Position numbers and translations under genes: made by a program. A stretch of DNA of 64,000 nucleotides from positions 11,708 through 75,707 of the forward strand of contig JBJKSD010000019.1 in NCBI GenBank assembly GCA_046704245.1, given 5' to 3'. This DNA comes from Bacilli bacterium (GTDB lineage: Bacteria > Bacillota_I > Bacilli_A > RF39 > UBA660). Shown in pieces: positions 31,971 to 33,306 of this stretch (positions are counted from its first letter, which is position 1; each line of letters starts with the position of its first letter). The notes below the pieces were generated by a model that was not told where the DNA came from, searched no databases, and was given only the letters and a program-made list of their open reading frames with translations.

Positions 31971-33115
31971 AAGAAACAGAAGAGGCATTATTTTTTAGTT
32001 TTGTCCAACATTTATTTAACTCGGGTGTTATTGAATATGGTAATAAAAGAAAAGTTATTTATCCTCAAGTATTTTATAATGTTAATAATAATTTAATTTA
32101 TCAAGCGCCCCAGTTTTTATGGTGGGATATTACAAGTAAGTGTAATTTAAAATGTTATTATTGTTATTCATCAGCCGGTTATATTGATGAAAATGAATTA
32201 ACAACTAATCAAATATATTTAATATTAGATCAAATTCAAAAAATGGGTATATTTTATGTGTTTTTTCTAGGGGGAGAACCTTTTTTAAAAGAAAATTTTA
32301 TTGATATAATTGAATATGCTAGTAAATTAGGGTTGGGAATTATGATAACAACTAATGGTACTATTATAAATTCTAAGATAGCTAAAAAGTTAAGAAATAT
32401 TGATGTATCAGTAATTAGAATAAGTATAGATTCTGCTAACAAAGACATTCATAATTTAATAAGAGGGAGTAATAAATCATTTGATAAATGTATAAATGCT
32501 CTTAAATGTTTATCAAGTGTTGGAATAGAGCACTTAGGCATCAGTACTACATTGGGCCCAGATAATTATAAAGGGATAGAGGATTTAGTAAAATTAGCAA
32601 AAAATTATAAATGTAATCACATACAAATTACTCCGATTAGTCCAGCAGGAAGAGCTCGCGAAACAGGTAAATATTTAAGTATTAAGCAGGTAGAAGAAGT
32701 GAAAAAAGTTTTGGCAGTTTTAATAGAAAAGGAAAGAACTGAGAAAACAAAATTTGTTATTGATGCGCCAGAAGGTATAATAATTAAACCTAATCAAATT
32801 ACAGTATACAAAAATAAAGAAAAAGTAGATTTAATGGGGTGCGGGGCTGGCCGTGTTTGTTTATCAATATATAGTGATGGTAGAGTTGGATATTGCTTAA
32901 TGAATAGAAAAGTGATAGACTCATTAAATAATAATACTTTACTAAAGATTTGGAAAAAAATTAATAAAGAAATAAAGAGAAAAGATAGAGGATTCTGTAA
33001 AAATTGTAAAAATATTGATATATGTGCTGGTCCTTGTATGGTGTTAGAAAACACTTGTGATTGTGAGCGAGAAAAAATAATGAATAATAAATTATTAAAG
33101 GAGGTTGCAAAATGA
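31958..33115 (+). CDS. radical SAM / SPASM-domain peptide-modifying enzyme, copy 1 (body; no in-frame ATG/GTG/TTG before 32243, so it is likely frameshifted from the RRE ORF)
   Basis: The open frame from 31958 encodes WWDITSKCNLKCYYCYS (CxxxCxxC at 32141-32164), then FLGGEPFL and a SPASM cysteine set (CGAGRVC...C...CKNCKNIDICAGPC). The first ATG (32243) lies downstream of the rSAM cluster motif. Confidence 0.65.
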   Translation, partial: LHNLKETEEALFFSFVQHLFNSGVIEYGNKRKVIYPQVFYNVNNNLIYQAPQFLWWDITSKCNLKCYYCYSSAGYIDENELTTNQIYLILDQIQKMGIFYVFFLGGEPFLKENFIDIIEYASKLGLGIMITTNGTIINSKIAKKLRNIDVSVIRISIDSANKDIHNLIRGSNKSFDKCINALKCLSSVGIEHLGISTTLGPDNYKGIEDLVKLAKNYKCNHIQITPISPAGRARETGKYLSIKQVEEVKKVLAVLIEKERTEKTKFVIDAPEGIIIKPNQITVYKNKEKVDLMGCGAGRVCLSIYSDGRVGYCLMNRKVIDSLNNNTLLKIWKKINKEIKRKDRGFCKNCKNIDICAGPCMVLENTCDCEREKIMNNKLLKEVAK

Positions 33116-33306
33116 CAAATATTTTAGTATTAAGAGCTTGGAATATTAAAGATTTATTTATTGAGCCCTTTATCAATGTAGATAGTGTGGAATGCTTTAA
33201 TGATGTAAATAATGATAAAGACGAAGTGGTATTGATGAGTAGATCTTGCCCTTGTAAATGTACTTGTACTTGCCAGTGTCAGTGCCGTTGTACTATTTTA
33301 GATTAA
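33112..33306 (+). CDS. Cys-rich RiPP precursor peptide candidate (leader plus CxCxCxCxCxCxC core)
   Basis: The 64-aa ORF has a strong SD (AAGGAGG, 8 nt upstream) and an ATGA overlap with the rSAM stop. Its sequence is MTNILVLRAWNIKDLFIEPFINVDSVECFNDVNNDKDEVVLMSRSCPCKCTCTCQCQCRCTILD. Confidence 0.6.
   Translation: MTNILVLRAWNIKDLFIEPFINVDSVECFNDVNNDKDEVVLMSRSCPCKCTCTCQCQCRCTILD

Follow-up and report, generated by a model that had tools for sequence, protein, structure and literature searches.

A conserved small ORF with an alternating-cysteine core after a radical SAM/SPASM gene: probable precursor of a previously uncurated family of modified peptides

What is the product of a small gene that codes for cysteine at every second position near its carboxyl terminus? 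This question is raised by a 64-amino-acid open reading frame (ORF; 33112..33306, + strand) in a stretch of 64,000 nucleotides, the window, that covers positions 11,708 to 75,707 of contig JBJKSD010000019.1 from a Bacilli bacterium (assembly GCA_046704245.1). The ORF is the last gene of a unit, preceded by gatA, gatB, aspS and a trmL-like gene, that codes also for a kinase and for a radical S-adenosylmethionine (rSAM) enzyme with a SPASM domain. A first-pass annotation of the sequence had taken it for the precursor of the adjacent enzyme, an assignment supported by the conservation, position and selection described below. The small gene is real and encodes a substrate peptide. It is probably the precursor of a small, hitherto uncurated family of peptides that are ribosomally synthesized and then modified post-translationally (RiPPs), whose maturation would combine thioether chemistry with tailoring by the kinase. 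The unit has the following features.

29991..30019, + strand: promoter-like sequence TTTATA-17-TAGAAT with a TG extension, between the trmL-like gene and kinase1 (consensus scan only)
30092..31765, + strand: kinase1, with a helical amino-terminal domain of ~200 residues, a PPDK_N ATP-grasp domain and a PEP-utilizers swivel domain (GGFLSH)
31785..31970, + strand: amino-terminal 61 codons of the maturase, similar to a PqqD-type RiPP recognition element (RRE), aligning with residues 1-60 of intact homologues of 438-457 amino acids (alignment A1; tblastn)
31958..33115, + strand: rSAM core and SPASM domain (rSAM1; Pfam Radical_SAM, SPASM), in another frame than the amino-terminal part
33100..33104, + strand: GGAGG Shine-Dalgarno sequence, 7 nt before the peptide ATG
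33112..33246, + strand: leader, residues 1-45, with W10-N-I-K-D-L-F and V-D24-S-V-E-C28, then a variable spacer
33247..33306, + strand: core CPCKCTCTCQCQCRC, then TILD and the stop codon; eight alternating cysteines at 33247-33291
33308..33337, + strand: terminator-like hairpin with a 13-bp stem, a 4-nt loop and a U-run, just past the peptide stop codon

The translation of the ORF (MTNILVLRAWNIKDLFIEPFINVDSVECFNDVNNDKDEVVLMSRSCPCKCTCTCQCQCRCTILD) is exactly the one first reported, and the GGAGG sequence and the translational coupling were also confirmed, the peptide ATG overlapping the TGA stop of the upstream rSAM/SPASM ORF in an ATGA motif (33112-33115). A site of the AGGAGG type occupies the same position upstream of the peptide in all eight loci inspected. 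The alternation of cysteines in the core is strict, as had been described, but their count is eight rather than seven (C46, 48, 50, 52, 54, 56, 58 and 60); the leader holds a single cysteine, C28 (codon 33193-33195). The hairpin that follows has a folding energy of -11.9 kcal/mol (z = -4.3), which none of 200 shuffled sequences equals. It is shared with a convergent thioredoxin-like gene and marks the end of the kinase-rSAM-peptide operon. GC-rich hairpins with T-runs are found also 3' of the peptide gene in loci L002 and L006. The sequence at 29991..30019 is a weak candidate for the operon promoter, promoter-like sites being about as numerous in this region as in shuffled sequence. Reading TGA as Trp, an alternative code, was rejected, gatA, gatB and aspS being intact under table 11.

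The first-pass annotation had named a lack of conservation or co-localisation in related genomes as its refutation, and on this count it is not refuted. At least ten distinct loci from metagenomes or metagenome-assembled genomes (MAGs) have a homologous ORF of 53-68 amino acids directly downstream of an orthologous rSAM/SPASM gene (product of ~441 amino acids, with an RRE-like amino-terminal domain), and this position is fixed: the ORF is present in every locus with sequence 3' of the rSAM gene (L002, L003-5, L006, L007, L011, L013/14, L015, L016 and L017-19). Alignments A2 and A3 show that its products have in common the leader W-N/D-I/V-K-D-L-F ... V-D-S/T-V-x-C and a core of the form (Cys-X)n. 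Residues D24 and C28 are invariant in these alignments and D14 is nearly so; across the 14 family members of A3, C52, C54 and C58 are invariant and C60 is kept in at least 90%. Family cores have 5-9 cysteines in about 20 residues. Only these cysteines are kept; the positions between them vary freely and can hold P, K, T, Q, R, G, S, N, A, V, E or M. The carboxyl termini read TILD, PVQRK, LRLN, RQTK or QVQPK. Members of the family are the following.

L006: MVGAVALKKWDIKDLFFKSFVVVDTVGCDKERELLGGIFLNNKCGCPCSCPCPNPCGCPVQRK
L002 and L007: near-identical to L006
L011: ...ISVDSTECYDILARKQQVIKMGWTCPCKSQCRCTCECQCQ, running off the contig end
L013/14: ...QDSVECLNVTTVSDNNIMYLSTCNCPSPCGCPNQCCCPRQTK
L015: ...STDTIECVQHILSEKKIIKLVSACSCTVTCACVCPCQCTCTCLRLN
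L003-5: ...YDVVVCKHDIRMEKTCYSGPCSCPCPCVGPNPRGTVH
P0160, a 50%-identity cluster, also after an rSAM/SPASM gene (L016): ...SLDSTECISELDKKGGMFVNLCNCTCNCQCQCMCQVQPK

Synonymous codon differences outnumber non-synonymous ones in three close pairs (22:9, 11:7 and 18:12); the frame is under purifying selection.

The family is small in the databanks searched. A direct search of a 5.8-billion-protein index with the window peptide retrieved only itself; relatives were reached first through a search with the rSAM enzyme and then through an alignment and profile of the peptides. The profile search gave 14 clusters at 90% identity, and when 1.84 billion representatives were searched exhaustively with a hidden Markov model, only 8 clusters at 50% identity came up. 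P0122, the commonest of the subfamily clusters, comprises 12 members and is found on roughly a hundred contigs. A single scan of 185,579 species-representative genomes revealed only three genuine loci, all in MAGs of uncultured Clostridia/Bacillota, and the family is therefore rare there. The peptide has no match in Pfam, NCBIfam or PADLOC, even at E <= 1, and Rfam has none in the 29-39 kb region of the window. The peptide belongs to no curated precursor family and its enzyme to no curated maturase family.

A short DNA repeat in AT-rich sequence could in principle give rise to such a pattern in a chance ORF. The core DNA had been described as short and repetitive. Its periodicity is only weak, with period 6, 3.7 copies, 75% matches and a score of 30 in Tandem Repeats Finder. 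This hexamer periodicity is what speaks for a chance origin. The peptide core is the only run of at least four alternating cysteines in the six frames of the window (27.6% GC). From base composition, runs of four are expected 0.05 times per window and runs of seven 8e-7 times, below 1e-6; in 100 shuffles, runs of four averaged 0.08 and runs of five never arose. Homologues keep the cysteine pattern with other codons and other intervening residues, so a microsatellite does not explain it. Purifying selection, the Shine-Dalgarno site and the terminator argue in the same direction. A chance ORF is already refuted by conservation and has a negligible probability.

The enzyme encoded upstream of the peptide is recognized by Pfam Radical_SAM (PF04055, 64.9 bits for a cutoff of 29.5) and SPASM (PF13186, 23.7 bits for a cutoff of 21.5). 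Its CxxxCxxC motif is CNLKCYYC (32141-32164), with C62, C66 and C69 invariant in A1, and the SPASM cysteines C295, C313, C347, C350, C356 and C360 are invariant as well. The first ATG, GTG or TTG of the ORF, at 32243, lies downstream of CxxxCxxC. Eleven homologues were found, at 38-49% identity to rSAM1. Intact ones have 413-457 amino acids, and their first ~60 residues match the preceding 61-codon ORF; the two ORFs are therefore one gene, for an RRE-like domain, an rSAM core and a SPASM domain, broken by a 1-nt frameshift at about 31967, where the sequence reads ttt/aaaa. After repair the protein has 443 amino acids. Pfam PqqD does not match the 61-aa fragment. In a profile search the amino-terminal ~95 residues of the maturase family align with the amino-terminal RRE/peptide-binding domain of SuiB. 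The best solved relatives are SkfB (6efn, 2.7e-27), CteB (5wgg, 2e-19) and SuiB, and the top NCBIfam match is the mycofactocin maturase MftC. The next-nearest rSAM protein, P0015, is 31% identical and is found in an unrelated CBS/glycosyltransferase context, which sets the family boundary at about 38% identity.

Two variants of the maturase deserve mention. In L007 (5782-7116; the same in L021/L022) the motif reads CNLNYYYC, Tyr replacing the middle cysteine ligand; this enzyme may be inactive, or the sequence may have an error. In L016 (2-583) the rSAM enzyme beside precursor P0160 ends with ...SKCNCACG, a short CxC repeat carried by the enzyme itself.

Maturation of the peptide can be proposed to proceed as follows. 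The conserved amino-terminal leader would be bound by the RRE-like amino-terminal domain of the rSAM/SPASM enzyme, which would then modify the (Cys-X)n core at the carboxyl terminus. Cross-links of cysteine sulfur to carbon, that is thioethers, are the most likely modification. Links to alpha-carbons, of the sactionine type, fit best because only cysteine is conserved and the intervening residues, including Gly and Pro, vary. The upstream kinase, with its His-carrying swivel domain, would be an accessory tailoring enzyme that probably takes phosphate from ATP and, by way of phospho-His, places it on the peptide, either unmodified or already modified.

The partner kinase has two Pfam matches, PF01326 (95 bits) and PF00391 (58 bits), and stays far below all NCBIfam cutoffs, those for phosphoenolpyruvate (PEP) synthase, Rph and PigC included. 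Its ORF opens at a GTG (30077) and its likely start is the ATG at 30092. The amino-terminal ~200 residues match no family and are helical in a low-confidence model (two sequences, predicted local distance difference test score 45). Orthologues of 547-548 amino acids are encoded directly upstream of the rSAM gene in L002, L006, L007, L009, L011, L017-19 and L020-22. Invariant in this family are GGK..GL, RSSA..ED..SFAG and the His of GG(F/M)L(S/C)H (alignment A4). Enzymes of this fold pass the ATP beta-phosphate via phospho-His onto a substrate oxygen. Rifampin phosphotransferase, PEP synthase and PigC/RedH share with kinase1 the PPDK_N ATP-grasp domain, the PEP-utilizers swivel domain and the catalytic His. 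Kinase1 differs from them in its size of only ~550 amino acids and in a helical amino-terminal domain in place of their PEP/pyruvate TIM-barrel and rifampin-binding domain. Literature searches returned nothing that links enzymes of the PPDK, PEP synthase or rifampin phosphotransferase type with RiPPs or rSAM enzymes.

The organization of L015 (1004-4650) is distinct: a B12-binding rSAM enzyme (445 aa) and a kinase of the Pkinase fold (239 aa) accompany the RRE-rSAM-SPASM enzyme and a 67-aa precursor with nine core cysteines. The Pkinase gene, which comes after that of the B12-binding enzyme, has the position held elsewhere by the PPDK-type kinase and is translationally coupled, overlapping the start of the rSAM gene. 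Such a replacement suggests that the job of either kinase is to phosphorylate a hydroxyl. The phosphate acceptor could be a variable Ser/Thr, a group made by the rSAM enzyme, or something else. A second, independent link between a swivel domain and a SPASM enzyme is found in L028 (65-1405), where protein P0035 (446 aa) has a PEP-utilizers swivel domain fused amino-terminally to a radical SAM/SPASM enzyme, in another context with histone-deacetylase-like and enolase-superfamily genes. In L013 (1908-3507; also L014), a 3.8-kb contig, the CxC precursor is followed by a 55-aa ORF (...NVKECCGD) and a different rSAM enzyme of 445 amino acids, possibly another RiPP pair.

Several observations weigh against thioether formation with kinase tailoring. 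The enzyme stays below the NCBIfam cutoffs of MftC (150 bits for 265), NirJ2 (145 for 500), StsB (107 for 625), SkfB (88 for 300) and PapB (80 for 340). The six positions close to the catalytic site, read from alignments with CteB and SkfB, are Y-L-T-S-L-M and fully match no characterised thioether synthase, the corresponding residues being F-F-T-S-H-Q in CteB, Y-T-F-S-Q-L in SkfB and Y-T-I-S-K-L in StsB (PMC10288494). The core is devoid of a GxGxG acceptor segment and of any other conserved acceptor, and the 5-9 cysteines packed into about 20 residues are not easily arranged as a classical nested hairpin. In this genome the rSAM1 maturase itself is frameshifted. As to the kinase, it was not seen beside the rSAM gene on the short contigs L012 and L013/14, and no Ser or Thr is invariant in the 14 peptides of A3. 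The presence of rSAM enzyme and peptide without the kinase at some loci leads to a system whose core is these two components, the kinase being a frequent accessory. Neither a protease nor an exporter is a conserved part of the cassette at the loci examined, and the product could on this evidence act inside the cell or be secreted.

A rather unlikely alternative is a thiol-rich peptide that works inside the cell and whose cysteines mostly stay free thiolates that bind Cu, Zn, Cd or an Fe-S cluster, as a metallothionein-like protein, a metallophore or a cofactor precursor with limited modification by the rSAM enzyme and the kinase. CxC repeats are a hallmark of metallothioneins, and cysteine is all that is conserved in the core. 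The bare three-gene unit lies among housekeeping genes, without conserved exporter or leader protease, as in RiPPs of the cofactor type (mycofactocin, PQQ); in L002, L006 and L017 the flanking genes include alanyl-tRNA-synthetase-like and ABC-F genes. The top NCBIfam match of the enzyme points likewise to mycofactocin. That match is below cutoff, however, and the carboxyl-terminal Val-Tyr required by MftC (PMC10288494) is absent from the peptide. No metallothionein model, nor any other in Pfam or NCBIfam, matches the peptide, a simple metal binder would need neither a long conserved leader nor a dedicated RRE-rSAM enzyme, and L006 has two ABC exporter genes just upstream of the cassette. Somewhat less probable is a RiPP precursor matured by rSAM/SPASM chemistry other than thioether formation: oxidation of cysteine to formylglycine or thioaldehyde, C-C cross-links, epimerisation, or formation of thiazoline once the kinase has activated the backbone. 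SPASM maturases catalyse many reactions and similarity predicts their chemistry poorly; the window enzyme is under all curated cutoffs, and its proximity residues show no full match to a known thioether synthase. PigC and RedH, relatives of the kinase, use the ATP-grasp/swivel fold to activate oxygen for condensation. StsB, for all its resemblance to MftC, makes sactionines (PMC10288494). By sequence, the solved structures nearest to the enzyme, SkfB and CteB, are nevertheless thioether synthases, conservation of cysteine only is what thioether donors typically show, the cassettes examined have no azoline machinery such as YcaO or a dehydrogenase, and the sulfatase motif C-x-P-x-R is absent from the peptides.

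The kinase might instead act first, in a lanthipeptide-like pathway where phosphorylation of core Ser/Thr and elimination would yield dehydro-amino acids for addition of cysteine, with a secondary role for the rSAM enzyme. The two unrelated kinase folds found in one position are expected for hydroxyl phosphorylation, and many cores have C-S-C or C-T-C. This pathway is very improbable: no cassette has a lyase or cyclase domain, which separates the system also from class III, IV and V lanthipeptides, and some loci show no kinase. Core Ser/Thr are unconserved, P0126 and P0132 being devoid of a C-S/T-C unit and P0126 of any core Ser/Thr, and rings between adjacent residues would be strained. Finally, a match of the rSAM enzyme at 105 bits to the PADLOC system 'Viperins associated with kinases' raises the idea of an anti-phage module in which the small ORF is incidental. 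The viperin model of NCBIfam (NF038283) gives 78 bits for a cutoff of 180, viperins lack the full SPASM domain and the amino-terminal RRE-like domain of this enzyme, the kinase has no PADLOC match, and both the sequence and the position of the small ORF are conserved. The PADLOC score reflects the shared rSAM core, and domain content effectively refutes a defence role of this type, whose probability is minimal.

A precursor of thioether-containing RiPPs, the preferred reading, finds its closest described precedent in StsA/StsB and BlaA/BlaB of Streptomyces (Precord et al. 2023, PMC10288494), with which it shares the alternating cysteines, the thioether donors in StsA. StsB is an MftC-like, RRE-dependent sactisynthase, and the core of StsA, CxCxCx4GxGxG, has Cys2, 4 and 6 linked to the alpha-carbons of Gly15, 13 and 11 (PMC10288494). 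The models of MftC and StsB both match the window enzyme. There are also differences. StsA forms a hairpin of Cys-to-Gly sactionines from three cysteines and a GxGxG segment, while the (Cys-X)n family has 5-9 cysteines and GxGxG in none of its 14 members. At the StsB model (NF045574, cutoff 625) the window enzyme scores 106.8 bits and P0010 100.9, covering only the rSAM core. The RRE-like domain is fused in the (Cys-X)n maturase whereas the RRE is the discrete protein StsC in the Sts system, for which no kinase is reported, and the hosts are MAGs of low-GC Clostridia/Bacillota instead of Streptomyces. The family is thus functionally nearest to sactipeptides of the StsA/StsB type but fails their defining features.

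Other known systems are more distant. SkfB/SkfA and CteB/thermocellin have an RRE-bearing rSAM enzyme, auxiliary clusters and cysteine thioethers; they are the best solved relatives at low identity, and SkfB has a twitch domain where the (Cys-X)n maturase has a full SPASM domain. SCIFF precursors differ by their cysteine spacing, their own models do not match here and the residues proximal to the active site of their enzyme differ. The SCIFF maturase is not among the top matches of rSAM1, the PapB model of ranthipeptides gives 79.9 bits for a cutoff of 340 and the peptide has no CxxxD/E motif. The distinction from SCIFF, sactipeptide and ranthipeptide precursors that had been drawn at the outset holds at the level of curated models, with CxCxC of StsA as a partial precedent (PMC10288494). 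An assignment to mycofactocin is contradicted by the MftC score and by the carboxyl terminus of the peptide. Metallothioneins share the dense CxC repeats and lack the conserved leader and dedicated maturase found here. The system would be an RRE-dependent rSAM/SPASM RiPP, new in its (Cys-X)n core and its associated His-swivel kinase.

The kinase has a paralogue a short distance downstream in the window, in a second cassette.

34651-37811: streptide-like cassette (precursor, StrB-like maturase, kinase2)
34651-34755: KGDGW precursor of 34 amino acids, MQRIKKYAISNFLDDCHFKKGDGWKVKKSKKSKK, with the streptide motif KxxxW
34719-36099: StrB-like RRE-rSAM-SPASM enzyme (rSAM2), its frame broken within an A9 homopolymer (35048-35056)
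36081-37811: kinase2, PPDK-type, 35% identical to kinase1 over its full length

The rSAM/SPASM genes of the two cassettes had been labelled copy 1 and copy 2. Their products are only 22% identical and are therefore not copies; they belong to unrelated subfamilies, the second in a separate, streptide-like cassette. Repaired rSAM2 aligns with TIGR04080 over 2-438/440 at 191 bits (cutoff 500). The arrangement precursor-rSAM-kinase of this cassette is intact in L023 and L024. Its KGDGW precursor and StrB-like maturase resemble those of streptide (StrA/StrB/SuiB, with a Lys-Trp cross-link in KxxxW). The PPDK-type kinase is what it shares with the (Cys-X)n cassette, from which it differs in maturase subfamily and core. 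Streptide operons carry the transporter StrC, and a kinase is not known from them. The kinase family thus has partners in two maturase families that are unrelated. On the upstream side of the KGDGW precursor, a conserved 134-aa ORF (34123-34602) with no assigned function is 26.6% identical to its L024 counterpart. The latter (L024, 2034-2660) reads in frame without a stop into the precursor, as a 208-aa ORF (...NSRFKKGDGWKSIPKEKRK).

In this genome a frameshift interrupts each of the two maturase genes. The genes for kinase1 and kinase2, the two precursor ORFs and the housekeeping genes nearby are all intact. The only other assembly found, an independent one from Logan (L001, SRR31309759), is 100% identical over 32979-36344 and reproduces the A9 allele; it ends short of the rSAM1 junction. 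The interruption between the RRE-like and the catalytic part means that the (Cys-X)n cassette may be inactive here, or that the assembly has a 1-nt error. The possibilities for the two frameshifts are real inactivation or decay, phase variation, homopolymer or transcriptional slippage, and assembly error.

Other genes of the window are mentioned for completeness. The convergent gene after the peptide (33349-33828, - strand) codes for a PedC/BrcD-like membrane thioredoxin (weak match), an adjacency that is not conserved elsewhere. A second membrane-anchored thioredoxin-like protein (23762-24292, + strand), listed as PedC-like, matches DUF6568. The ORFs 37965-38981 and 39464-40642 encode paralogues with a common carboxyl-terminal domain and no assigned function, the second with a long proline-rich (P-E/V-P-D/E-P) repeat. 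Next come genes of a Tad/type IV pilus-like kind (T2SSE, RcpC/CpaB-like, DUF5411).

Radical SAM RiPPs are a rich field for finding both new enzyme chemistry and bioactive peptides. The (Cys-X)n system has an extreme core, with every second residue a cysteine in runs of up to 8-9. Three genes are all that the system requires, and neither its peptide nor its enzyme is covered by a curated model. Its chemistry is not predictable from precedent, the Gly acceptor ladder needed by StsA being missing. The recurrent association of two RiPP cassettes with a kinase of the PEP-synthase/rifampin-phosphotransferase type, which the literature searched does not report for RiPPs, points to a new tailoring reaction. 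It is conceivable, though rather doubtful, that the ~550-aa kinase is a new class of RiPP tailoring enzyme serving both (Cys-X)n and KGDGW maturases, and that the (Cys-X)n peptides yield a scaffold not yet described. This could be a phosphorylated peptide densely stitched by thioethers, or else a product of backbone activation by the kinase, possibly an intracellular metal or redox cofactor rather than a bacteriocin. The family is found mainly in uncultured low-GC Clostridia/Bacillota known from metagenomes, and heterologous expression is therefore the direct route.

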